From NCBI RefSeq assembly GCF_050920415.1, contig NZ_CP169309.1: DNA of 64,000 bases, one strand, 5' to 3'. A program made the position numbers and the translations under genes. Positions 21,752 through 54,562 of this stretch are shown here, piece by piece; the first letter of the stretch is position 1, and each line of letters begins with the position of its first letter. Under the pieces are notes generated by a model. That model made no database searches, was not told the DNA's origin, and worked only from the letters and a program-made list of their open reading frames with translations. This stretch comes from Escherichia coli (GTDB taxonomy: Bacteria; Pseudomonadota; Gammaproteobacteria; Enterobacterales; Enterobacteriaceae).

Positions 21752-22048
21752 TTAGCGATAGCCTTCTTCTGTATGCAGCAAGGCAAAAAGTTCTGCAACT
21801 CCATTGTTATTAACCGCACTGGTTACTAACACATTGTGCGCTCCAGCTTCCCGTAACCAACTTTTCACCAAAGATATTTGTTCCATACTGGCTAAATCTG
21901 CTTTGGTGACTACTCCAATGACCGGGCGATTCATTGACGAGGTAAAGCCTGGCGAAAAAGGTGACCACGGTGCGTCCGCATTAAGTACCAGCGCGATAAT
22001 GTCTGCTTCGCAGGCACTGACTAACAGAGCACTGTAGAGGCTGCGGTT
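21752..22048 (-). pseudogene. yoeF: Remnant of a EutP/PduV-family GTPase gene (yoeF-like); N-terminal P-loop part missing or scrambled
   Basis: The minus-strand frame reads ...[53 protein letters not shown]...LLHTEEGYR. An in-frame stop lies at 22049-22051 and there is no GxxGxGKT. Weak upstream traces (..HRQKAG..) appear in ORF 22049..22270. Confidence 0.6.
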
Positions 22049-22519
22049 TTATCGGTGAGGACTGGCAGCAAGATTTCCAGCCTTTTGACGGTGGGCCTGT
22101 GCAATCGTTATCAGATTCGTATAGCGATTATTCAGTGCTGCTATTGATAGCAGCTGAAAGCGAGATATCCGTACCAGAATAGCTCCCTCATTCTGAGGGA
22201 ACGACGGTAATTTTGATTGCAGAACACAATGCCCGTTTGCTGAATGGTCCGGCTGGTGGGGCTGTAGCATTAATCCATTATTTGAATGAAATCAGTCATG
22301 CCAGAGAAACCGCTGTCAATGACGCATTTTGTCGGACGTTAACACGAGGAAGTCTGGCTATTCCGCAATGCCATCTTCTTTCGTAATGGATTGAGAATGC
22401 TGGATTTTTAATTATATTACGCGCAGTATTAATCGCGTAAATGTTTTGCGGTCAGCAACAGTGGGGGAACCATTGTTCTGTTCAATGAATACCATCATAC
22501 AATTGAATCAGGAGTCGGT

Positions 22520-24896: not shown

Positions 24897-25694
24897 AAAC
24901 GAAAAGTCTGATAAAAGCTATACTTATCGGATAGTATTCGCGACTTAGGAAAGGGACATGATGCGTCGTGTAAATATTTTTTGCTCATTTGCTCTACTTT
25001 TTGCCAGCCATAATAGCCTGGCGGTAACTTATCCATTACCTCCAGAGGGTAGCCGTTTAGTGGGACAGTCGCTTACTGTAACTGTTCCTGATCACAATAC
25101 CCAGCCGCTGGAGACTTTTGCCGCACAATACGGGCAAGGGTTAAGTAACATGCTGGAAGCGAATCCGGGGGCTGATGTCTTCTTACCGAAGTCTGGCTCG
25201 CAACTCACCATTCCGCAGCAACTGATTTTGCCCGCCACTGTTCGTAAAGGGATTGTGATTAACGTCGCTGAGATGCGTCTTTATTACTACCCGCCAGACA
25301 GTAATACTGTGGAAGTCTTTCCTATTGGTATCGGCCAGGCTGGGCGAGAAACCCCGCGTAACTGGGTGACTACCGTTGAACGTAAACAAGAAGCACCAAC
25401 CTGGACGCCAACGCCGAACACCCGGCGCGAATATGCGAAACGAGGGGAGAGTTTGCCCGCATTTGTTCCTGCGGGGCCTGATAATCCCATGGGGCTGTAC
25501 GCGATTTATATTGGCAGGCTATATGCCATCCACGGTACCAATGCCAATTTTGGTATTGGGCTCCGGGTAAGTCAGGGCTGTATTCGTCTGCGCAATGACG
25601 ATATCAAATATCTGTTTGATAATGTTCCTGTAGGTACTCGTGAACCGCCCCGGAAATCCTGGAGACTAAACTTCCTGAGAAAGAGGTAAACAGG

Positions 25695-26021
25695 ATGACT
25701 AAAAATACTCGTTTTTCCCCCGAAGTCCGTCAACGCGCAGTTCGTATGGTTCTGGAAAGTCAGGGCGAATATGACTCACAATGGGCGGCAATTTGTTCCA
25801 TTGCTCCAAAGATTGGCTGTACGCCAGAGACTCTGCGTGTCTGGGTTCGCCAGCATGAGAGGGATACCGGGAGCGGTGATGGTGGGCTCACCACCGCTGA
25901 ACGTCAGCGTCTGAAAGAGCTGGAACGTGAAAATCGTGAACTGCGCCGCAGTAACGATATCCTTCGCCAGGCTTCCGCTTATTTTGCGAAGGCGGAGTTC
26001 GACCGCCTCTGGAAAAAATAA
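25695..26021 (+). CDS. IS3-family transposase OrfA (HTH)
   Basis: 108-aa ORF ([22 protein letters not shown]...). An A6 slippery run at 26013-26018 lies just before its stop. Confidence 0.92.
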
Positions 26022-26908
26022 TGCCACTGCTGGATAAGCTGCGTGAGCAGTACGGGGTCGGACCGGTATGCAGTGAACTGCATATTGCCCCGTCAACGTA
26101 TTACCATTGTCAGCAGCAGCGGCATCATCCTGATAAACGCAGTGCCCGTGCGCAGCGCGATGACTGGCTGAAGAGAGAGATACAGCGCGTATACGATGAA
26201 AATCATCAGGTGTACGGTGTGCGTAAAGTCTGGCGTCAGTTGTTACGGGAAGGAATCAGGGTGGCCAGATGTACAGTGGCGCGCCTCATGGCGGTTATGG
26301 GACTTGCCGGTGTTCTCCGGGGTAAAAAGGTCCGCACTACCGTCAGCCGGAAAACCGTTGCCACAGGTGACCGCGTAAACCGTCAGTTCGTGGCAGAACG
26401 TCCTGACCAGCTGTGGGTGGCTGATTTTACTTACGTCAGCACATGGCAGGGCTTCGTCTATGTGGCGTTCATCATTGATGTGTTTGCCGGATACATCGTG
26501 GGGTGGCGGGTCTCATCGTCTATGGAAACGACATTCGTGCTGGATGCGCTGGAGCAGGCGTTGTGGGCCCGTCGTCCGTCTGGCACCATCCATCACAGCG
26601 ATAAAGGCTCTCAGTATGTGTCACTGGCCTATACGGAGCGACTAAAAGAAGCAAAACTGCTGGCATCAACAGGGAGTACAGGCGACTCGTATGACAACGC
26701 GATGGCTGAGAGCATCAATGGTCTTTACAAAGCGGAGGTAATACACCGTAAGAGCTGGAAAAACCGTGCAGAAGTGGAACTGGCCACACTCACGTGGGTG
26801 GACTGGTATAACAATCGACGATTGCTGGGAAGGCTGGGCCATACTCCTCCGGCAGAAGCAGAAAAAGCTTATTATGCTTCCATCGGAAACAATGATCTGG
26901 CAGCCTGA
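26021..26908 (+). CDS. IS3-family transposase OrfB (DDE catalytic domain)
   Basis: 295-aa ORF in the -1 frame relative to orfA. DDE residues sit in the contexts WVADFTYV, HHSDKGSQY and DNAMAESING. Confidence 0.92.
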   Translation: MPLLDKLREQYGVGPVCSELHIAPSTYYHCQQQRHHPDKRSARAQRDDWLKREIQRVYDENHQVYGVRKVWRQLLREGIRVARCTVARLMAVMGLAGVLRGKKVRTTVSRKTVATGDRVNRQFVAERPDQLWVADFTYVSTWQGFVYVAFIIDVFAGYIVGWRVSSSMETTFVLDALEQALWARRPSGTIHHSDKGSQYVSLAYTERLKEAKLLASTGSTGDSYDNAMAESINGLYKAEVIHRKSWKNRAEVELATLTWVDWYNNRRLLGRLGHTPPAEAEKAYYASIGNNDLAA

Positions 26909-27228
26909 GTTCACAGATAAAACACTCTCCAGGAAACCCGGGGCGGTTCAACTCGTGTACAAATTATTGATCAGCCAGTGAAATACACAACGGAACCGGA
27001 TGGATCAAAGTGGCTGGAAGTTCATGAGCCACTGTCGCGCAACCGTGCGGAATATGAGTCAGACCGAAAAGTGCCTTTGCCAGTAACGCCATCTTTGCGG
27101 ACGTTCATTAACGGGCAAGAAGTTGATGTGAATCGCGCAAATGCTGCATTGCAGCGCCGATCAGGAATGCCTGTGCAAATTAGTTCTGGTTCAAGACAGA
27201 TGTTTTAAGAGCGTTGTTAATTAGAAAG

Positions 27229-27259
27229 CAAAAAGCCTGCTCGAAAGCAGGCTTTTTTG
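27229..27259. terminator. Bidirectional hairpin terminator between ldtA and asnV
   Basis: AAAAAGCCTGC-tcgaaa-GCAGGCTTTTTT. Confidence 0.8.
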
Positions 27260-27263
27260 AATT

Positions 27264-27339
27264 TGGCTCCTCTGACTGGACTCGAACCAGTGACATACGG
27301 ATTAACAGTCCGCCGTTCTACCGACTGAACTACAGAGGA
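27264..27339 (-). tRNA. asnV: tRNA-Asn (GUU)
   Basis: The reverse complement reads TCCTCTGTAGTTCAGTCGGTAGAACGGCGGACTGTTAATCCGTATGTCACTGGTTCGAGTCCAGTCAGAGGAGCCA. 76 nt, anticodon loop CTGTTAA, encoded CCA end. Confidence 0.97.
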
Positions 27340-29662: not shown

Positions 29663-29670
29663 CAGAAATT

Positions 29671-37706: not shown

Positions 37707-45695
<7,989 letters not shown>

Positions 45696-46107
45696 GCTTA
45701 CCTTCCCTGAACGAGCTAACATAAATGCGCCCTTTCTAGCACAGCGAAAAAATATAAATCCTGATAGCAATATGATTGAAAATTAATAACTTTTCGTTAA
45801 GCAGTTTTGGGTGTGAGTTGCAAGAGGGGAGACTACTGAATAACTCAGTTTAATAATTGAGGGGGCAATGGTGACGAATATAGGGACGGAGTAGAGAAGA
45901 TAGTGCTGAACTCTTTGCCAGCAGAAGGTTATGTGGCACAAAAATAACCGTAACTTCTCACTCTCGACAGGAAAGCTGTAGACGGCGTCCATAACAAAAC
46001 GCCCCCAACCATAAGGTCGAGGGCGCTTAAGATGACAAACCCGCTCTTCGTTAAAGAATCAATGCTTAATGTAGATGAGTTGCATTGCACGATAAAAGCG
46101 AATTTTT

Positions 46108-46128
46108 AGAATTTGGCTCCTCTGACTG
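46108..46128 (-). repeat. Partial tRNA-Asn 3' end (att-site direct repeat of the asnT islet)
   Basis: GAATTTGGCTCCTCTGACTGG is identical to 54382..54402, which covers the 3' end of asnT plus 5 flanking nt. Similarity to the tRNA stops after GACTGG. Confidence 0.9.
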
Positions 46129-46462
46129 GGATCGCCGTAGCCATTAACAGGCTGATTGGTAAAGCTAAAAAAATTTGAGTTTGTCAAGACCACCAGAATG
46201 ACCACCATTTTAAAGTAACATTTGAAGTTTACTCAGTAGCACCTTTAGCTTCACTTACAATCAATTAACCTGTGAAGATAGCTGTACCTACAATCGCAAT
46301 AACTTATTACAGATCCGACGACAAACATCACCTGTTATCCACTCTGGCACTACCGTGCATGATAATCAATAAGTCGGGTGCTGGCTTGCAAGGCAATTGC
46401 GTTGTAATGTACCAAATCCCAGTTCGCCTTCACTCTAAAATGCCCCGACGTTTCGAACGCGT

Positions 46463-47341
46463 TTACGGTAAATAATGCGTGACAATCTGCAGGAACTCAT
46501 CCCGCATCTGGTTGTCGATTTTCGGATTCCATGCCACACCAATGTTCCATATGATCTGCTTTCCCCACAGAGTAATCAGCTTGACTCCTACAGGTAAAAA
46601 ATTCTCGACGCTGGCGGGTAGCAGCGCGAGACCATTCCCTCCGGCTATCAATGCTAGCAGGGAATGAATATCATTCGTCGCAGAGATTGGCTCAATGATG
46701 AGTTCATTATCCCGCAGGAACGCAGTCGTTTGCTCCGCCAGACAAGGGCTGACCGCTGGATCCATGCATAAAATCGGATAGATTGCCAGCGTACGCTGGA
46801 GATCGGTGGGATCAATATCGACGGCTACCGGGACAGCCAACACCAGATTTTCTTTATTTATTAAGCGAGAGGCCAATAATTCTGTTACCGGCATACGAAC
46901 AAAACCAGCATGCAGTTCACCTTCCATCAACATCCTAGCTTGTACGCTGGAGGCAATTTGGCTGATAACAACGTCGCAGTCGGGAAATTTCTGGCGAAAA
47001 GTGTTAATCCAAACTGGTGTGCTTTTAAACGAAGATATACCAAATCCGAGCACCAGTTTACCCGTACTCCCCTTTTGGATTTCTCTGGCGTAGGTTAAAA
47101 AATCGTGGTGGGATTTCAGCAACTCATAAGCTTTAGCAAACAACTGCCTGCCAACCATCGTCAACACTGCCCCGTGGCGACCACGCAGGAAAAGCTGCCC
47201 TCCGGTCTTCTGTTCGAGCATCTTGATCTGCTTTGAAAGCGCAGGTTGTGTCAGAAATAAAGCTTCTGCAGCTTTATTGTAGTTTCCCTTTTCCGCCAGT
47301 GTCACAAATGCACGCAGCAGCCTTATATCTATTCCTGACAT
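46463..47341 (-). CDS. LysR-family transcriptional regulator, divergent from the islet operon
   Basis: 292-aa ORF with N-terminal wHTH (LRAFVTLAEKGNYNKAAEALFLTQPALSKQIKMLE) and a C-terminal substrate-binding domain. Confidence 0.88.
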   Translation of the reverse strand: MSGIDIRLLRAFVTLAEKGNYNKAAEALFLTQPALSKQIKMLEQKTGGQLFLRGRHGAVLTMVGRQLFAKAYELLKSHHDFLTYAREIQKGSTGKLVLGFGISSFKSTPVWINTFRQKFPDCDVVISQIASSVQARMLMEGELHAGFVRMPVTELLASRLINKENLVLAVPVAVDIDPTDLQRTLAIYPILCMDPAVSPCLAEQTTAFLRDNELIIEPISATNDIHSLLALIAGGNGLALLPASVENFLPVGVKLITLWGKQIIWNIGVAWNPKIDNQMRDEFLQIVTHYLP

Positions 47342-47567
47342 TTATTGAATCCTGAAAAATTGGAATTATACAAATACTCGCAACAGATGACATGATGCGT
47401 AAAATGATTTACGCCGAGATCCCCTTGGTTTGTCAAACTCAGAAACGCCATACCTGCTGCTCTTGGTTCTATTTAACACTCACTAATGCGCAGGTTATTT
47501 ATAAAAATTGACCTCATAAATCATTCAAAAACATTAATTATATAAATACAATAAGGATTAAATATTT

Positions 47568-48167
47568 ATGCCAAATATTGCCGTTCTCACTAATGACCTG
47601 CAGTATGAGTTTACCTACAAAATAACACGCTCTCCAGAAATTCTGGCGCAAAAACTCGTCCAGTTTAATCAGTTTCTCGATGGCATTCGCGCTCTGGATC
47701 AATCCATTATCCACCTGCAACTTATCAACGATCCTAATGACCCGGCGGTACAAAAGCGCTATCGCAACCGCGAAGCGGGCATTCCTGCACTAGCTGGTCG
47801 CCCGGAAAACCAGATTATCGATAAAGTATACCGCCCCACAGATCTGGTTGTAGTCAAGGGCAGAGACAGCGGTTTTTTTAATAACGATCTCGACGAAATC
47901 CTCCAGCAACTCGGGGTAAAAACCGTAATCGTTACCGGGTTGCAAACTCATGTTTGCGTGCAGACCACTGCAGCGGATGCCTTCTTTCGCGGCTATAACG
48001 TCTGGGTACCGGGCGACTGCGTGTTCGCTCCTTCGTCCGAAGATACAGAGCGTGCACTCGAGTGGCTTGCCAGCTATTGCGCAACTGTAGCACCTTCTGC
48101 GGAAATTTTATCAATATTGCAAAAACAGAACGATCTGCCTGAGCGCGGCGAAAGGGAAGCATCATGA
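47568..48167 (+). CDS. Isochorismatase-family (cysteine) hydrolase
   Basis: 199-aa ORF. The family Asp-Lys-Cys triad appears in its usual contexts: IAVLTNDLQYEF, VVVKGRDSGFF and VIVTGLQTHVCVQTTAADA. Confidence 0.8.
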   Translation: MPNIAVLTNDLQYEFTYKITRSPEILAQKLVQFNQFLDGIRALDQSIIHLQLINDPNDPAVQKRYRNREAGIPALAGRPENQIIDKVYRPTDLVVVKGRDSGFFNNDLDEILQQLGVKTVIVTGLQTHVCVQTTAADAFFRGYNVWVPGDCVFAPSSEDTERALEWLASYCATVAPSAEILSILQKQNDLPERGEREAS

Positions 48168-49195
48168 GCTTAACCCAGACGCTAAATCATGAAGAGGTCG
48201 TTGTACTGGATCATGGCACCGGGGCGAAATTAAGCCGCGAGTTGGTTGAAAAAATTGCTAGCATTCTCGGTGACACCTATCTGGGCGTGATGGAAGATAG
48301 CGCGGTGCTGGGGTTATCCACCAGGCGAATTGCCTTCACCACCGACTCCTTTGTTGCCACGCCGCTGATTTTCGGCAACGGTGATATTGGCAAAATCGCC
48401 GTATGCGGCACCGTTAACGATCTCGCTGTCAGTGGGGCTCGTCCCCTTTACATCACACTCAGTCTTATTATTGAGGAAGGTATGCCGATGGCTGATCTGG
48501 TCAGAATCATCGAGTCCGTACGTGAAACGGCTCGTGAGGCAGAGGTCAAGATTGTCGCTGGTGATACCAAGGTCGTAGGTAAAGGTGAAGCAGATCGGCT
48601 GTTTATCAATACTGCTGGCATCGGCGTGTTTGAACATCCGCCAGTCTCAGTTAAGAACGTGCGTCCGGGGCAGAAAATAATCCTGAGCGGATATATCGGC
48701 AATCACTCGATTCACCTGCTGTCGATGCGGGAAGGATTGGGGTTCGAGCGAAATATTCTTAGTGATTGCGCACCGCTGAACCACATTATTGACAAACTTA
48801 TCAGCAACATCCCTGAAGGCAAAATAGCGTCAATGCGAGACGTTACGCGCGGTGGGCTGTCCGCTGTTTTACACGAACATGCGCGCGCAACAAATTATCA
48901 GATTCATTTCGACCAGCCATCTTTGCCCATACAGCCGGAAACCGCCATGGCAGCTAATATGCTGGGTGTTGACGTCATTAATCTCGCTAATGAAGGTTGT
49001 TTGTGCCTGTTTGTTGAACCTGAGTATGCTCAGAAGGTACTACATTTGCTGCAGGAGCATCCTGTCGGCAAGCACGCGACAATTATCGGCGAGATCACCG
49101 CTGTCTCGGGTACTGAAGTCTATATGATTGAAGCTGATGGAACACACACAGAAGTCGAGGAATTATATGGCGCAGAATTACCCAGACTCTGTTGA
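48164..49195 (+). CDS. HypE-like PurM-superfamily protein (carbamoyl dehydratase-like) ending in ...PRLC
   Basis: 343-aa ORF alignable along its length to my recollection of E. coli HypE (FTTDSFV, GNGDIGKIAVCGTVNDLAVSGA, IVAGDTKVV, LFINTAGIG, RDVTRGG, NLANEG). The C-terminal PRLC corresponds to the canonical PRIC. Its start overlaps the upstream stop (ATGA). Confidence 0.85.
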   Translation: MSLTQTLNHEEVVVLDHGTGAKLSRELVEKIASILGDTYLGVMEDSAVLGLSTRRIAFTTDSFVATPLIFGNGDIGKIAVCGTVNDLAVSGARPLYITLSLIIEEGMPMADLVRIIESVRETAREAEVKIVAGDTKVVGKGEADRLFINTAGIGVFEHPPVSVKNVRPGQKIILSGYIGNHSIHLLSMREGLGFERNILSDCAPLNHIIDKLISNIPEGKIASMRDVTRGGLSAVLHEHARATNYQIHFDQPSLPIQPETAMAANMLGVDVINLANEGCLCLFVEPEYAQKVLHLLQEHPVGKHATIIGEITAVSGTEVYMIEADGTHTEVEELYGAELPRLC

Positions 49196-51545
49196 GCTTC
49201 ACGAGACGCCGGAAACCCGGCGTTACCGCATCTGTGGGGTCGTTCAGGGCGTTGGATTTCGTCCCTTTGTTCACCGACTGGCCCGCACCTATGGTGCCAC
49301 CGGCTGGGTGTTAAACGATTCAGAAGGCGTGTTGCTTGAGCTGCAGGCATCCGGCACGGTTATTGCCAGAATCATGGACAAACTGGTGACCGAGGCACCA
49401 CCACTGGCAAAAATCATCAGTACGCAGGAAGTTAGCCCAACGGATACCAGAGCGCACTATGAAACGTTCAGCATCCGTAAAAGCCGCGATCATACCAGCA
49501 TGGACACGATTATCCCGCCAGATACCAACGTCTGCAGCGATTGCCTGCGCGAGATAAGCGATCCTGATAATCATCGTTATCGTTACGCTTTCACCAATTG
49601 CACCAATTGTGGGCCGCGCTATTCCATTATTCTTGGTATGCCTTACGATCGTGCCCAGAGCACTATGCGTAAATTCCCTTTATGTCCAACCTGTGAGCGT
49701 GAATACAACGATATTGAGGATCGACGCTATCATGCCCAGCCCAATGCCTGCCCAGTTTGCGGCCCACAGTTGCAACTTACCGATCGACAGGGCACATCCG
49801 TTCACACAGATGATATTGTCAAATTTGCCATTACGAAACTAAAAGAAGGCGGAATTCTTGCAATAAAGAGCCTTGGTGGCTTTCATCTCGTGGCCGATGC
49901 TTGCAATGAGAATGCTGTCAATGAACTTCGGCAACGCAAGCGAAGAGACGCCAAACCTTTTGCAGTGATGGTCGCGGATGTGGAAAGCGCGTCGCGTATT
50001 GCTTTCATCCCCCCCTGTAATCACAAATTGCTGGAAAGCCCGCAGCGTCCCATTGTCTTGTTGTATAAGCGCAACGTCCTGCTGGCGAGTACCGTTGCGC
50101 CACATAATCCGAACATCGGTGTAATGCTGCCTTCAACGCCGCTTCAGCATTTATTGCTGGAAGACCCGTCTCTGCCGATCCTGATTATGACCAGCGGTAA
50201 TATTTCCGGTCATCCGATCGTCTTTGACAACGACATGGCAATTAAGCAACTCGGGAAAATCGCGGATTACTTCATTCTGAATAATCGCGATATTCATACG
50301 CGTGTTGACGATTCGGTGGTCCGCACGGTGTTTCTCAACGACGCCATTACCTCGCAGCTATCGTTTTTGCGCCGCTCCCGCGGTTACGCGCCATACCCTA
50401 TTCATCTACCTTACGCAGTGGATTCCGTTATCGCGCTCGGGGCGGAGCTAAAAAACACGATCAGCATCGGCAAAGGAAAACAGGTTTTTCTGAGCCAGCA
50501 TATTGGCGATCTTAAGAATAACGTGACTTTTAAATCACATATCGAATGTATTGATCATCTTCAAAACCTGCTGAACGTGAAGGCAAATGTCGTGGCCTGC
50601 GATTTGCATCCCTCTTTCCGCTCTACCCGGCATGCGCTGGAGAATTTAGAGCATCAGGTTGTTCAGGTTCAACACCATCACGCGCATATGGCATCCTGCA
50701 TGGCGGAAAATGGCCTGTCAGGTACTACTCTAGGCGTAATTTTTGACGGTACAGGATATGGCACCGACGGCACCATTTGGGGCGGTGAGTTTCTCGTTGG
50801 TGATTTCGAAAAATTCGAGCGTGCAGGATGCTTGCGTTCAATGACCCTGCCCGGAGGCGATCGGGCAGTTAAAGAGCCGCTGCGCGTCGGCATCTCCTTA
50901 CTGGTGGAAACCTTCGGCGAAGATATCAGTACGCTCGCAGTACCAGGCTTGCAGGCGCTCCAGCCTCAGCAGCGCGATATATTCAGTAAAATGGCGACCA
51001 GAAAAATCAACACCACCACGACCAGCAGCATGGGCAGACTATTTGACGGCATCGCCGCGCTGATGGGCGTTTGCACTCAGGTGGAGTACGAAGCCCAGGC
51101 GGCCATTGAACTGGAAGCGCTGCTGCAGTGTAAACTTCATATGACGGCTCCGTTCAGCTACATCATTGCCGATGTCGAGAATAAGCTCGAGGTGGATTAT
51201 CGCCCGATGATAAGGGAACTGGTGCAATGCTTCAGCCAGCCCGGTTTTGATATGGCCGAACTAAGTCGGCGCTTTCACTCTACCATCGTCGACATGATTT
51301 GCGAGGTCTGTAAACGTCTGGTGGCACGCTCAGGCACGCAACAAATTGTCCTGAGCGGCGGCGTGTTCTGCAATGAATTCATCCTCGTTAATTCTCTTAA
51401 CAGTCTGGAGTCTTGTGGATTCCGGCCTTACAGCCATCAGTTAGTTCCGACTAACGATGGTGGTATTTCATTGGGGCAAGTGGTTATTGCTACCGCATAC
51501 ACTCGCGCAACGCGCAATAAAAATCTGGAGAGAGAAAATGCATAG
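49167..51545 (+). CDS. HypF-like carbamoyltransferase with all four domains (acylphosphatase, 2 x Zn-finger, YrdC-like, Kae1-like)
   Basis: ORF 49128..51545, with the ATG at 49167 preferred (GAGG SD 6 nt upstream). Motifs: VQGVGFRPF (acylphosphatase); CSDC-x18-CTNC and CPTC-x18-CPVC; ILAIKSLGGFHLVADA (YrdC-like); QVQHHHAHMASC (Kae1/HypF metal site). Confidence 0.88.
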   Translation: MAQNYPDSVELHETPETRRYRICGVVQGVGFRPFVHRLARTYGATGWVLNDSEGVLLELQASGTVIARIMDKLVTEAPPLAKIISTQEVSPTDTRAHYETFSIRKSRDHTSMDTIIPPDTNVCSDCLREISDPDNHRYRYAFTNCTNCGPRYSIILGMPYDRAQSTMRKFPLCPTCEREYNDIEDRRYHAQPNACPVCGPQLQLTDRQGTSVHTDDIVKFAITKLKEGGILAIKSLGGFHLVADACNENAVNELRQRKRRDAKPFAVMVADVESASRIAFIPPCNHKLLESPQRPIVLLYKRNVLLASTVAPHNPNIGVMLPSTPLQHLLLEDPSLPILIMTSGNISGHPIVFDNDMAIKQLGKIADYFILNNRDIHTRVDDSVVRTVFLNDAITSQLSFLRRSRGYAPYPIHLPYAVDSVIALGAELKNTISIGKGKQVFLSQHIGDLKNNVTFKSHIECIDHLQNLLNVKANVVACDLHPSFRSTRHALENLEHQVVQVQHHHAHMASCMAENGLSGTTLGVIFDGTGYGTDGTIWGGEFLVGDFEKFERAGCLRSMTLPGGDRAVKEPLRVGISLLVETFGEDISTLAVPGLQALQPQQRDIFSKMATRKINTTTTSSMGRLFDGIAALMGVCTQVEYEAQAAIELEALLQCKLHMTAPFSYIIADVENKLEVDYRPMIRELVQCFSQPGFDMAELSRRFHSTIVDMICEVCKRLVARSGTQQIVLSGGVFCNEFILVNSLNSLESCGFRPYSHQLVPTNDGGISLGQVVIATAYTRATRNKNLERENA

Positions 51546-52278
51546 TTCTGCGAACCGTATTGCCGCTGTTTTATTCGATATGGATGGTGTCCTTATTGAT
51601 TCCAATGCGGTGATTGAGCGCGGCTGGGCTGAAGGCGCACAGATGTTTGGCAAGACGCTAACGGAAGAGGATATCGTCAGGCATATTCACGGACAGCCCG
51701 GCCCGCATACCATTCGCGCCCTGTTCAGCGACCTTTCCCTGGAAGATCAAAAGAAGGTCCAGTCACATATCATCCACGTTGAAAATACCGCTGATTACGA
51801 CCCGATCCCTGGAGTTAGCGAACTTATCCAGGCGTTGCATAAGGCTGGCATCAGTGTGGGGATTGTCACTAGCGGCTGGCGGTCGAAAATCGATCGTATT
51901 ATGGAGATGCTGCAAATCACGCCCTGTATTTCAGTGATTGTCGAACGTGATGATGTCGTGCGCGGCAAGCCTTATCCCGATCCTTATCTGCTTGCCGCAG
52001 AGCGGTTTCATCTTGCACCGTCCAGAACACTGGTCTTTGAGGATTCAAGAAGCGGCGTAACATCTGCTGTTACAGCAGGCGCAATTTGTGTTGGCATCGG
52101 TACAGACAGTCTGAAAGAGTGCGGTGCCGTGCTTGCAATTACAGATTTTCGTAATGTGAAAATCACCTCACAGACAGGCGAAAAAGTAGTGATTGCCTTT
52201 ACTCCAGAGCACCAGATGGAGATGGAAACTCAGAGCTCTCGTAAGAAAACATCCTGTACCACAAGAGAAGAGTGCTAA
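51538..52278 (+). CDS. HAD-superfamily hydrolase (subfamily IA, beta-phosphoglucomutase/sugar-phosphatase-like)
   Basis: ORF 51457..52278, with the ATG at 51538 (MHSSANRIAAVLFDMDGVLIDS) overlapping the hypF-like stop (ATGCATAG). HAD motifs: DMDG, TSG, K-x-PYPDPY, FEDS. Confidence 0.85.
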   Translation: MHSSANRIAAVLFDMDGVLIDSNAVIERGWAEGAQMFGKTLTEEDIVRHIHGQPGPHTIRALFSDLSLEDQKKVQSHIIHVENTADYDPIPGVSELIQALHKAGISVGIVTSGWRSKIDRIMEMLQITPCISVIVERDDVVRGKPYPDPYLLAAERFHLAPSRTLVFEDSRSGVTSAVTAGAICVGIGTDSLKECGAVLAITDFRNVKITSQTGEKVVIAFTPEHQMEMETQSSRKKTSCTTREEC

Positions 52279-53471
52279 TGAATATCACACAGAAGGGACG
52301 CTGGGCTGTCACTATGCTATTTTTTATCAATGGCTTCGTCACCGGAGGTTGGGCTGTGCAAATTGCACAGCTTGTACCACGCTTTGGCGTGACCGACAAA
52401 GTGATCGGCCATTTAATTCTGATCTTCGGATTCGGTGCACTAACCATGATGCCCATATCAGGCATTCTGATGGAAAAGATGGGGACACAAATCGTAACGC
52501 GTATTTTTGCCCTTGCAGCCTCCCTGGCATTAATTCCGGTTGGTTTAGCCACCACCCCATTAGTGTTGATGCCAGCGTTATTTGTTCTTGGTGCGATGAT
52601 TGGTGCCATGAATGTAGCGATGAACTCGAATGCCGTGGCGGTGGAGAGATCACTCTCACAAGCGATTTTATCCTCCTGCCATTGCTTCTGGAGTATCGGC
52701 CTATTTGCGGCGGGCTCGATAGGCGGCCATCTTGTTGAACAATTTGGCTTTTTGACGCATATCTTTTTGATTAGTGCCGTGGCCTTAATACTGACGCTGA
52801 TTATCGCTCCGGCCATTTTTAAAGACATACAGACGGTTAAATCCACCAGCAGACAGACCACCCGGTTGCCTCGTTCTCCGGCGATTTATCTGATTGGATT
52901 GATGGCTTTTCTGGCCATGATCCCTGAATGCGCTGTTGTTGACTGGTCGTCACGCTATTTGATTAAAAATCTCAATGCAAAAACAGAAATCGCCAGCCTT
53001 GCCTTCGCCTGCTTTGCTGTAGCAATGGCCTTGTTTCGCTTTATGGGTGACGTGATCCGCAACCGCTTCGGCGCAATATTAATTATACGAATCTCCAGCT
53101 TACTGGCAGGCGCTAGCCTATTGTTGAGCGCACTGGCACACAATCCCTGGCAGGCGATCTGCGCATTTACCTTAGCGGGAATCGGCATCGCCAACCTTGT
53201 GCCCATTGTCTTTTCCGCAGCGGGAAATCAGCCCAATATTTCCACCAACACAGGAATGAGCATTGCCACAACCATTGGGTATTTAGGCACGCTAATGGCC
53301 CCTGCGCCTATTGGCTATATTGCGGAAATAACCGGTTTTCCAGTGGTTTATTGCGGACTAGCTTTCATGTCGGGAATTATCTTTTTGCTGGCACCACTGG
53401 TTCGGGGGGCAGAAATCTCTGTACAGCGGCAGCGAGCCTCAAACAAACACCAGAATACCGGAGCGTTGTAA
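52278..53471 (+). CDS. MFS transporter
   Basis: ORF 52272..53471, with the ATG at 52278 overlapping the HAD stop (TAATG). Roughly 12 hydrophobic helices throughout. Confidence 0.85.
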   Translation: MNITQKGRWAVTMLFFINGFVTGGWAVQIAQLVPRFGVTDKVIGHLILIFGFGALTMMPISGILMEKMGTQIVTRIFALAASLALIPVGLATTPLVLMPALFVLGAMIGAMNVAMNSNAVAVERSLSQAILSSCHCFWSIGLFAAGSIGGHLVEQFGFLTHIFLISAVALILTLIIAPAIFKDIQTVKSTSRQTTRLPRSPAIYLIGLMAFLAMIPECAVVDWSSRYLIKNLNAKTEIASLAFACFAVAMALFRFMGDVIRNRFGAILIIRISSLLAGASLLLSALAHNPWQAICAFTLAGIGIANLVPIVFSAAGNQPNISTNTGMSIATTIGYLGTLMAPAPIGYIAEITGFPVVYCGLAFMSGIIFLLAPLVRGAEISVQRQRASNKHQNTGAL

Positions 53472-53922
53472 TTTCTGCCTGGCAAATACTGTGAAACGCT
53501 GACGCAAATTTTACTTTCCTGCGTATTGTCATCACAGGCCGTACAGACAGTGCGCGGTCTGTTGGCGGATCTGCCTGGTATTTTGCCGATGAACTGAGGG
53601 CGTCCTGCGGGATACGTATCGCCAGGGGCGTGAAACTAATTGATGAGGTGGCGGCATGATGCCGGCGGACTAGCATATCTGCCTTTCGCCGCCTGACATG
53701 TCCTTTGGGGCCGCTGTCAGTTCAGAGTAAAGGAGAAAAAGATCGATACCGAGGGGGGGCACGACGCCCCGGAGACACCCCTGTTTCGTCAGACAGTCTG
53801 TACCGCGTACAGCCTGAAACTCCCTAAACCTCAACAAACTGCCACTTCGACGTGAAGGTATCGTTCTGGCGCAGCCAAAAAGCACATGCCGGAGACTGTT
53901 TTTTTGGTTGTAGAGGGTAGTC

Positions 53923-54060
53923 ATGAGCAAATTAAGTAGTGAAATGAAGGCCCTGACGAAGAAAGCAGGCGGCAGCTTCAAAACGGTAAATGACCGTATC
54001 CATATTACAAAACGGTTCAGTGAGCATTTACGCGAACTGAACATCCAGATCCGGCGGGTA
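53923..54060 (+). pseudogene. Possible N-terminal stump of a second tyrosine-recombinase-type gene
   Basis: MSKLSSEMKALTKKAGGSFKTVNDRIHITKRFSEHLRELNIQIRRV resembles, from memory only, the N-terminal domain of a class of island or plasmid integrases. The frame then runs into antisense sequence of the P4-type integrase stump. Confidence 0.3.
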
Positions 54061-54225
54061 TGCGCCAAGACTGACTCTGGATTCTTTTCCGTTGAAACGA
54101 TATTTGAGATACCAGATGCGTGAACCGCCCGGATTGACGAGCAGATACAGACCGTGAGAGTCGGAGAGTTTTACCGGACGGGAAGAGGTTTTTAACTTGC
54201 GGATTTTAGAATCGTTTAAAGACAT
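54055..54225 (-). pseudogene. N-terminal ~57-codon stump of a P4-type (tRNA-associated) integrase
   Basis: MSLNDSKIRKLKTSSRPVKLSDSHGLYLLVNPGGSRIWYLKYRFNGKESRVSLGAYP matches the conserved DUF4102/Arm-type N-terminus of P4-like integrases. It starts ~160 bp from the asnT 3' end. No catalytic domain follows. Confidence 0.8.
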
Positions 54226-54386
54226 TTGGGGGTCACTCCAGAATCGAACCAAACTGACCCCAGATCTGACCACCAAATTATCCCGATGCGGAGAGAAAAC
54301 CAGATACGCACCGGGGAGGATTTTCACGCTAACTTACTGAACCGTAAACAAATAGAGATGTACAGATAAGCATGAAAACTTGAATT

Positions 54387-54462
54387 TGGCTCCTCTGACT
54401 GGACTCGAACCAGTGACATACGGATTAACAGTCCGCCGTTCTACCGACTGAACTACAGAGGA
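54387..54462 (-). tRNA. asnT: tRNA-Asn (GUU)
   Basis: 76 nt, identical to the other three copies. Adjacent to mtfA as in K-12. Confidence 0.95.
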
Positions 54463-54562
54463 ATCGTGTGAACAGGGCGCATGTTACTTAGCGGTACCTT
54501 GTCTGTCAACACTAAATTTCATAAGTCATTTCAATTGGTTAATTAATCTGCAAAGTTGTTAA

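Follow-up and report, generated by a model that had tools for sequence, protein, structure and literature searches.

A degenerate integrative island at an Escherichia coli asparagine tRNA gene carries an intact HypE/HypF cassette that is probably unrelated to hydrogenase

In textbook accounts, HypE and HypF serve one purpose, the synthesis of the cyanide ligands of [NiFe] hydrogenases. From carbamoyl phosphate and ATP, HypF forms carbamoyl-AMP and carbamoylates the C-terminal cysteine of HypE, which dehydrates the adduct to a thiocyanate. Enzymes of the TobZ, NodU, and GdmN class, which are built on a YrdC plus Kae1-like scaffold, also use carbamoyl phosphate and ATP via carbamoyl-AMP, in this case for the decoration of small molecules. 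In the decRiPPter study, hypE and hypF homologs without other hyp genes were reported beside a Streptomyces ATP-grasp gene, and a novel function was proposed, with no follow-up (PMC7794033). Among islands at Asn tRNA genes, the high-pathogenicity island (HPI) is found at asnT in almost every ECOR strain and at asnV in ECOR31, and in yersiniae each of the three asn copies is a target; the E. coli HPI has been immobilized by the loss of one direct repeat and spreads through recombination of flanking DNA (PMC2606025). The repeats of the EARL/ROD21 islands are 24 to 37 bp long and begin with GTTCGAGTCC (PMC6035254). We found nothing on asnT islands in the literature beyond this HPI and EARL work, and no description of the cassette reported here in the literature searched, where most subscription journals are outside coverage. 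Here, we analyze a 64,000-nucleotide stretch of Escherichia coli DNA (assembly GCF_050920415.1, contig NZ_CP169309.1; referred to below as the window) in which an islet of about 8.3 kb adjoins asnT. The sequence of the window matches E. coli MFDS1022581 at 100% identity. We are confident in explaining this locus as a degenerate asnT integrative island carrying an intact HypE/HypF cassette, which probably has a non-hydrogenase role. The island is of an ordinary type, while the cargo is an uncharacterized HypE/HypF variant and a worthwhile experimental lead.

The cargo is an intact, self-contained unit of six genes. A LysR-family regulator gene (46463 to 47341, minus strand; Pfam HTH_1 and LysR_substrate, in agreement with the source annotation) is divergent from a plus-strand operon, and a regulator gene occupies the same place beside the cassette in Citrobacter, Sodalis, Burkholderia, and other hosts. 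The operon begins with an isochorismatase-family cysteine hydrolase of 199 amino acids (aa) (47568 to 48167; PF00857, E = 3e-32), followed by a 343-aa HypE paralog that ends in GAELPRLC (48164 to 49195; TIGR02124, 415 bits; 39% identity to K-12 HypE) and a 792-aa HypF paralog (49167 to 51545; TIGR00143, 788 bits; 39% identity to K-12 HypF), in which Pfam identifies the acylphosphatase, two HypF zinc finger, YrdC, and Kae1-like domains. A 246-aa HAD-IA phosphatase with a DMDG motif (51538 to 52278; Pfam HAD_2) and a 397-aa major facilitator superfamily (MFS) transporter (52278 to 53471; Pfam MFS_1 and source annotation) complete the operon. Consecutive genes overlap by 4, 29, 8, and 1 bp, which suggests that they form one translationally coupled operon. 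The 226-bp divergent intergenic region (47342 to 47567) would be the control region and contains sigma-70-like hexamers (47524 to 47552 on the plus strand; 47393 to 47365 on the minus strand), although a promoter and terminator scan of the islet gave counts no higher than those in shuffled sequence. An earlier note on this DNA had correctly described a small islet here but had missed the identity of its cargo (i.e., LysR, hydrolase, HypE, HypF, HAD, and MFS). A defense system was ruled out, as none of the six proteins matches any PADLOC model.

The HypE and HypF paralogs have the same domain architecture as the [NiFe] maturation enzymes, including the HHHAH motif (invariant in HypF), the zinc fingers, the AIR-synthase fold, and the C-terminal PRxC motif. 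The closest solved structures are HypE-HypF complexes, and both paralogs score closer to the Caldanaerobacter complex than to the K-12 proteins. However, they differ from the canonical system in their low identity to the host pair (39%), in the separate clade formed by their HypE, in a cysteine hydrolase gene that is always adjacent, and in the absence of hypCD and hydrogenase genes from the loci annotated. They also differ from the TobZ, NodU, and GdmN class, which acts directly on the small molecule, with neither a HypE-like carrier/dehydratase nor a cysteine hydrolase partner. Our population sample consisted of 5,426 complete E. coli genomes, of which 5,423 contain the canonical hypE gene; since this gene is part of the E. 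coli core, carriers of the islet almost certainly hold two sets.

Among solved structures, the hydrolase is closest to N-carbamoylsarcosine-amidase-like proteins, RutB, and biuret hydrolase, which act on carbamoyl or ureido groups. Its Asp10, Lys97, and Cys130 residues align with N-carbamoylsarcosine-amidase-like structures as the Asp-Lys-Cys catalytic triad of the isochorismatase fold; all 73 sequences compared have Cys130, and the other two residues are mostly conserved. Members of this family form S-carbamoyl-type intermediates on carbamoyl or ureido substrates. For the HAD phosphatase, the nearest solved relatives are the sugar-phosphate phosphatase TM_1254 and beta-phosphoglucomutases.

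We surveyed the hydrolase-HypE-HypF trio by scanning one genome per species with the HypF paralog as the query and then examining synteny with tblastn. The ordered trio was detected at approximately 70 loci across Proteobacteria, Myxococcota, and Actinomycetota, with hosts that include Sorangium, Hafnia, Photobacterium, many Streptomyces, Nocardia, Kitasatospora, and Solirubrobacterales. Canonical loci of the Geobacter type contain no hydrolase gene, and their hypE lies approximately 3.6 kb downstream of hypF. Precomputed Pfam annotations describe the neighbors of the trio. In Sorangium, it lies with a giant nonribosomal peptide synthetase (NRPS), an ABC exporter, and a glutathione S-transferase (GST), and in Cystobacter with NRPS, GST, ABC, and PALP plus OCD (SbnA/SbnB-like) genes. 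The Streptomyces bikiniensis locus adds a class III aminotransferase, an MFS protein, an M20 peptidase, and an ATP-grasp protein to the trio, and the Micromonospora locus adds a class III aminotransferase. Next to the trio are HAD, SIS, Amidohydro_1, MFS, and CN_hydrolase genes in Burkholderia, and HAD, GT2 glycosyltransferase, MFS, and GlmS genes in a member of the Alteromonadaceae. Among the two open reading frames (ORFs) downstream of hypF at 61 loci, the leading families are Aminotran_3 and ATP-grasp (10 each) and HAD (5). No hydrogenase or hypABCD gene was found in the islet or in the annotated neighborhoods of the trio (i.e., approximately 15 loci with Pfam tables, plus the two downstream ORFs at 61 loci). 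In a neighbor-joining tree (no bootstrap), the trio-linked HypE sequences form one clade that excludes all of the canonical sequences sampled. The HypE C terminus separates the two sets perfectly, reading GAELPRLC in every trio-clade sequence and PRIC in every canonical one.

On the basis of the separate clade and the gene context, the hydrogenase-maturation label is probably wrong, and we consider it likely that the islet HypE/HypF pair does not mature hydrogenase. Its product is probably a small molecule. The automatic naming of the HypE and HypF paralogs as hydrogenase maturation proteins is probably an over-annotation that extends to hundreds of genomes. The combination of a distinct HypE clade, a constant hydrolase partner, an occurrence in at least three phyla, and a location in biosynthetic clusters suggests that carbamoyl-to-cyanyl chemistry has been recruited for small-molecule synthesis. 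Tentatively, and as one possibility of several, the trio may be a hydrogenase-independent module that builds a protein-bound thiocyanate or thiocarbamate from carbamoyl phosphate and delivers a cyano or carbamoyl group to organic acceptors. If this were true, natural products would acquire N-cyano, nitrile, guanidino, or ureido groups by a widespread and hitherto unrecognized biosynthetic route, spanning Streptomyces and Sorangium clusters as well as the six-gene, amino-sugar-type cassette on an Asn-tRNA island of E. coli.

A specific scheme can be drawn for the proteobacterial version, although we regard it as speculative and rather doubtful in its details. As in the canonical system, HypF would carbamoylate the C-terminal Cys343 of HypE, and HypE would dehydrate the product to a protein-bound thiocyanate. 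The cysteine hydrolase, acting through Cys130, would then take or process the HypE-bound one-carbon-nitrogen group and pass it to a small-molecule nucleophile instead of the HypCD iron. Given the SIS, GlmS, GT2, and NagA-like neighbors in other genera, we propose a phosphorylated amino sugar (e.g., glucosamine-6-phosphate) as the probable acceptor. The HAD enzyme would dephosphorylate the product, the MFS protein would export it, and the LysR protein would control the operon. The steps beyond HypE and HypF are suggested by gene context.

Several observations weigh against this interpretation of the locus. Both proteins exceed the NCBIfam equivalog cutoffs for HypE (TIGR02124) and HypF (TIGR00143) and keep all of the canonical motifs, so that they could still function in hydrogenase maturation. 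HypF is not cleanly monophyletic, as two canonical sequences fall inside the trio clade (neighbor joining, no bootstrap). The acceptor, the product, and the role of the hydrolase are assigned from gene context alone. In other genera, decay of the cassette is frequent (insertion sequence [IS] insertions or a split hypF), and it may thus be dispensable or costly. Finally, the mobility of the island is deduced only from its two insertion sites, as no carrier with an intact integrase was found.

The first of these points also favors an alternative in which the cargo pair is a spare or specialized maturation set that supplies cyanide ligands to the host [NiFe] hydrogenases under particular conditions. 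Some hydrogenase megaplasmids carry duplicated hyp genes, and the scores above the equivalog cutoffs, the complete domain sets, the retained PRxC and HHHAH motifs, and a genuine HypE-HypF complex as the best solved relative are all as expected for such a set. Nevertheless, we judge it unlikely. No hypA, hypB, hypC, hypD, or hydrogenase gene lies beside the trio in the loci annotated, where the conserved partners are instead the cysteine hydrolase and then HAD/MFS or NRPS/ATP-grasp genes; moreover, the HypE sequences form a clade of their own with a fixed PRLC terminus, and E. coli already has a core hypE, to which the cargo gene product is only 39% identical.

It also seems improbable that the operon is catabolic or detoxifying, with the MFS protein importing a carbamoylated, ureido, or cyano compound (or a sugar conjugate), the hydrolase and the HAD enzyme degrading it, and HypE and HypF having an accessory or salvage function. 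A LysR gene divergent from an operon that encodes a transporter and two hydrolases is an arrangement typical of catabolic loci, the nearest relatives of the cysteine hydrolase (RutB, biuret hydrolase, and N-carbamoylsarcosine amidase) are catabolic amidases, and the Burkholderia locus adds Amidohydro_1 and CN_hydrolase genes. However, HypF and HypE activate groups at the expense of ATP and are not known to act in catabolism, and in myxobacteria and actinomycetes the trio occurs within NRPS and ATP-grasp clusters that also encode exporters, i.e., in biosynthetic settings.

The cassette is a self-contained, portable unit, albeit one that is often decaying. The full six-gene version is present in Sodalis, Buttiauxella, Citrobacter, another Escherichia species, Salmonella diarizonae, Atlantibacter, and Enterobacter, at sites that are unrelated across these genera, and near-complete versions occur in Burkholderia alba and in a deltaproteobacterial metagenome-assembled genome. 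In Atlantibacter and Enterobacter, the cassette adjoins gor, and in S. diarizonae it is part of an accessory region that also contains Hha, ParDE, and a ProQ-like gene. Damaged copies include a split hypF in a Citrobacter genome (locus L085, 11609 to 13176), an N-terminally truncated hypF in Atlantibacter (locus L104, 12209 to 13981), and the cassette of Enterobacter sp. E76 (locus L105, 11541 to 16657), which is interrupted by two IS3-type insertions. The E. coli and Citrobacter carriers offer a genetically tractable, minimal six-gene version for product discovery. A Citrobacter cassette (locus L084, 13965 to 16024; locus L007, 14373 to 14448) ends approximately 100 bp from the 3' end of a tRNA-Asn gene, in the same orientation as in E. 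coli. Its DNA identity to the islet cargo is approximately 68%, and the site has neither an integrase remnant nor a distal attachment (att) site, which excludes Citrobacter as a recent donor. This site could represent an ancient island that has eroded completely, or it could be where an Asn-tRNA island originally took up the cassette.

The island that carries the cassette in the window is bounded by an exact direct repeat, which is the strongest in the region in a repeat scan. The 21-mer GAATTTGGCTCCTCTGACTGG occurs at 46109 to 46129 and at 54382 to 54402 (both plus strand), while 0 copies are expected by chance. The proximal copy overlaps the 3' end of asnT and consists of 5 nucleotides (nt) of 3' flank and the last 16 nt of the tRNA; the tRNA-Asn(GTT) gene itself (54387 to 54462, minus strand; ARAGORN and source annotation), which lies at the asnT position beside mtfA and serU, has been regenerated intact, so that the island begins 5 nt beyond its 3' end. 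Other matches to the 21-mer at 27259 (exact) and at 29666 and 31555 (one mismatch each) correspond to the 3' ends of the three remaining Asn tRNA genes in the window, and the copy at 46109 is the only match that is not attached to a tRNA. The earlier note had reported both copies and had placed the second one correctly and the first one a single base off. The interval between the copies (46130 to 54381) is 8,252 bp long, in line with its estimate of about 8.3 kb, and is flanked in the source annotation by yeeJ (37707 to 45695) and by asnT-mtfA-serU. As the note had stated, yeeJ and the tRNA-Asn gene are direct neighbors in K-12, where a single copy of the 21-mer is present. In a three-way alignment, identity to K-12 continues up to the last base of the distal 21-mer and then breaks off, and it resumes at the first base of the proximal one. 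Both junctions break at the repeat edges, and empty alleles have one copy, exactly as expected for an att duplication. Beyond the att pair, the repeat scan detected neither repeats nor IS scars on either side of the cargo within the backbone. Outside the island, a segment of approximately 106 bp upstream of yeeJ (45875 to 45980) is missing from K-12 and from strain NCTC9087; this indel is unrelated to the att sites.

The island is rare. A synthetic empty yeeJ-asnT junction was matched (coverage, ≥80%) in 2,667 of the 5,426 genomes, while the cargo (47400 to 53500) was found in 16, always on the chromosome and at ≥99% identity, and the whole 8,252-bp interval in 15. Approximately 500 other E. 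coli genomes match the integrase end only. The 16 cargo carriers have the island at asnT in 14 cases and at an Asn tRNA gene near nac in 2. The asnT island is found in a rare E. coli lineage, and the segment from 46129 to 54381 is not ancestral; an ancestral segment had been named as an outcome that would overturn the earlier note. The idea that the segment is ancestral in E. coli and was lost by K-12 and many other strains, with the repeat as a by-product of similarity among tRNA flanks, gains something from the four near-identical Asn tRNA genes in the region, which make tRNA 3'-end repeats common in the window, but it is effectively refuted by the 16 carriers versus 2,667 clean empty junctions with one repeat copy, by a distal 21-mer that belongs to no tRNA, by the recurrence of the island and its bounding repeat at a second Asn tRNA gene with that gene's own terminator as the outer flank, and by the integrase remnants at the tRNA-proximal end. 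Overall, the reading of the locus as a tRNA-targeted, immobilized element is supported, as every refutation test that was named and run came out in its favor.

The tRNA-proximal end of the island contains the remains of two recombinase genes. A P4/HPI-type tyrosine integrase is represented by its first 57 codons (54055 to 54225, minus strand; 98% DNA identity to the intact gene of NCTC9087), which encode the Arm DNA-binding domain (PF13356, Arm-DNA-bind_3; E = 5e-13) and start 161 bp from the 3' end of the tRNA, confirming the integrase N terminus that the earlier note had seen at about 160 bp. The intervening spacer (54226 to 54381), which forms the attL arm, contains blocks that are conserved in NCTC9087, some of which also occur in the corresponding HPI spacer of strain LF82. 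On the other side, a backbone segment (53684 to 54059, plus strand; 93% identity to NCTC9087 locus L003, 20001 to 20376) comprises an upstream region and a second integrase-domain gene that is truncated to its first ~45 codons (53923 to 54060; Phage_int_SAM_2, PF12834, E = 4e-18) and is annotated as a pseudogene. The two genes are oppositely oriented, and a deletion has fused the second, cut off at codon ~45, to the integrase gene at its codon 57. Overlapping BLAST segments and an alignment place the junction at 54051 to 54059, where a 9-bp microhomology reads CCGGCGGGT in the window and CCAGCGGGT on both sides in the intact NCTC9087 island. This 9-bp overlap of the two integrase-side segments indicates that approximately 3.2 kb was lost by a microhomology deletion. 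Thus, the integrase is decayed, as had been proposed, with 57 codons left; the cause is this deletion and not point mutations. The junction is common to 14 genomes, and an intact recombinase is present in none of the 16 carriers. The ~3.2-kb deletion and a loss of 0.7 kb removed the recombinase and left both att sites in an island without self-mobility, which would now persist by descent or through recombination of flanking DNA, as for the HPI.

GACCACC/TGACCMCC motifs cluster near the island ends (46188 to 46206 and 54228 to 54274), are conserved in the integrase-tRNA spacer of the HPI, and may be candidate arm-type sites of the integrase; the 6 matches to TGACCMCC in the window, versus 2.6 expected, are not significant, since 7 of 100 shuffles reach 6. 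The segment from 53684 to 54059 is only 91.5 to 93% identical to those of two sister islands, while the adjacent cargo is 99.5% identical and the integrase-att segment 98% identical; this contrast indicates that the island is a mosaic with a breakpoint at 53683/53684. In E. coli WL297 (locus L098, 1930 to 6257), an asnT carrier that has the deletion junction as well, a further deletion has taken away the LysR and hydrolase genes, the distal att, and the 5' ends of both hypE and yeeJ, which shows that erosion of the islet is ongoing.

The same cargo, which the earlier note had suggested seeking at other asn tRNA loci, was found with the same ends in Z1323HEC0462 and NY1601. These two carriers lack the deletion junction and have the island at the Asn tRNA gene beside nac-cbl (i.e., asnV). 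The order there is the distal att (CTGGCTCCTCTGACTGG), the LysR gene, the operon, a helix-turn-helix (HTH) pseudogene, the second integrase-domain gene, the integrase gene, and the tRNA gene, for a total length of 11.9 kb. The second integrase-domain gene has an internal stop, and the integrase gene is nearly full length and frameshifted, so neither long-form carrier has an intact recombinase. The region from 46103 to 53683 of the window is 99.5% identical to this island over 7.6 kb, and relative to it the window lacks 732 bp and approximately 2.9 kb. The distal att is preceded by the native terminator of that tRNA gene (cf. the window's own tRNA gene at 27264). Given that both ends are shared and that insertion into two Asn tRNA genes was precise, the island was once an active site-specific element that inserted at least twice.

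Outside the distal att of these two strains, ldtA is separated from the native terminator of the Asn tRNA gene by approximately 9 kb (Z1323HEC0462 locus L100, 22979 to 32247; NY1601 locus L101, 1 to 5153). This block contains two phosphotransferase systems, RpiB, rpe, a short-chain dehydrogenase/reductase gene, and hxlB; no further att copy was found in it. In the window, ldtA (erfK; 24960 to 27208), which lies beside the asnV-type tRNA gene, is split by a frameshifted IS3-family transposase gene (25697 to 26908).

The island backbone is related to a 16.9-kb asnT island in NCTC9087, which has an intact gene for a 420-aa integrase (locus L003, 22492 to 23754) and an oppositely oriented second integrase-domain gene. 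The window matches it at 54051 to 54480 (98%), at 53684 to 54059 (93%), and over approximately 80 bp just inside the distal att (46130 to 46211). This last segment is the conserved distal end of the backbone, common to the NCTC9087 and Z1323HEC0462 islands, beyond which the cargo diverges. Islands of the NCTC9087 type match the window at 98% across the integrase, spacer, and att and have the second integrase-domain gene and the ~80-bp distal end in common with it, but they differ in their intact integrase and their entirely different cargo. In NCTC9087, this cargo is of ABC-3C and type VI secretion system types, with an ABC-three-component defense system, DUF2169/DUF4150 genes, and an IS3 element. 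The family has conserved ends, with the integrase, the second integrase-domain gene, and the HTH gene at one and the ~80-bp segment at the other, and the cargo between them is interchangeable.

The comparison with the HPI, which the earlier note had drawn for asn tRNA genes in general, proved to be closer than supposed. Over the full length of the protein, the intact integrase of NCTC9087 has 71% identity to that of the HPI of LF82, in which ybtS and ybtX lie next to the integrase gene, and the 57-aa remnant in the window is 68% identical to the N terminus of the HPI integrase (amino acid identities), so the HPI integrase is a related sister and not the same enzyme; the att in the window contains the same tRNA-end core. 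Both elements have a P4-type integrase gene immediately beside the tRNA and conserved blocks in the integrase-tRNA spacer; each has been found at several asn copies (here, asnT and asnV), and both are immobilized in E. coli. They differ in that the backbone here has the additional second integrase-domain gene and the cargo is unrelated, with no yersiniabactin genes (ybt, irp, or fyuA). The common E. coli HPI has kept its integrase and lost its right-hand repeat (PMC2606025), whereas the window island has kept both repeats and lost its integrase.

The EARL/ROD21 repeats extend 8 nt further into the tRNA (GTTCGAGTCCAGTC...) than those of the window, whose distal repeat ends in CCAGTC, without GTTCGAGT. 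Membership in this group was rejected: the published 285-nt attL+int BLASTn query (i.e., attL, the promoter, and 82 nt from the start of the integrase gene) aligns with the window only over the tRNA, and the shape of the repeat differs. No H-NS-like, recombination directionality factor, or conjugation genes were found in the window island. As judged from sequence, the integrase family of the window is a sister of the HPI integrase and not of the ROD21/EARL type. The window island is an ordinary member of an HPI-type Asn-tRNA island family that has been doubly deleted and is immobile. The integration machinery of the HPI type is used by a broader family of E. coli islands whose cargo can be exchanged, and this member has been frozen in place by one microhomology deletion.

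Upstream of these loci, the window retains only a pdu/cob scar (21754 to 22388), consisting of a partial EutP/PduV gene and a cobalamin-biosynthesis pseudogene. At the corresponding position in Z1323HEC0462 (locus L100, 1419 to 18652), the pdu operon is complete and is accompanied by pocR and a cobalamin riboswitch.

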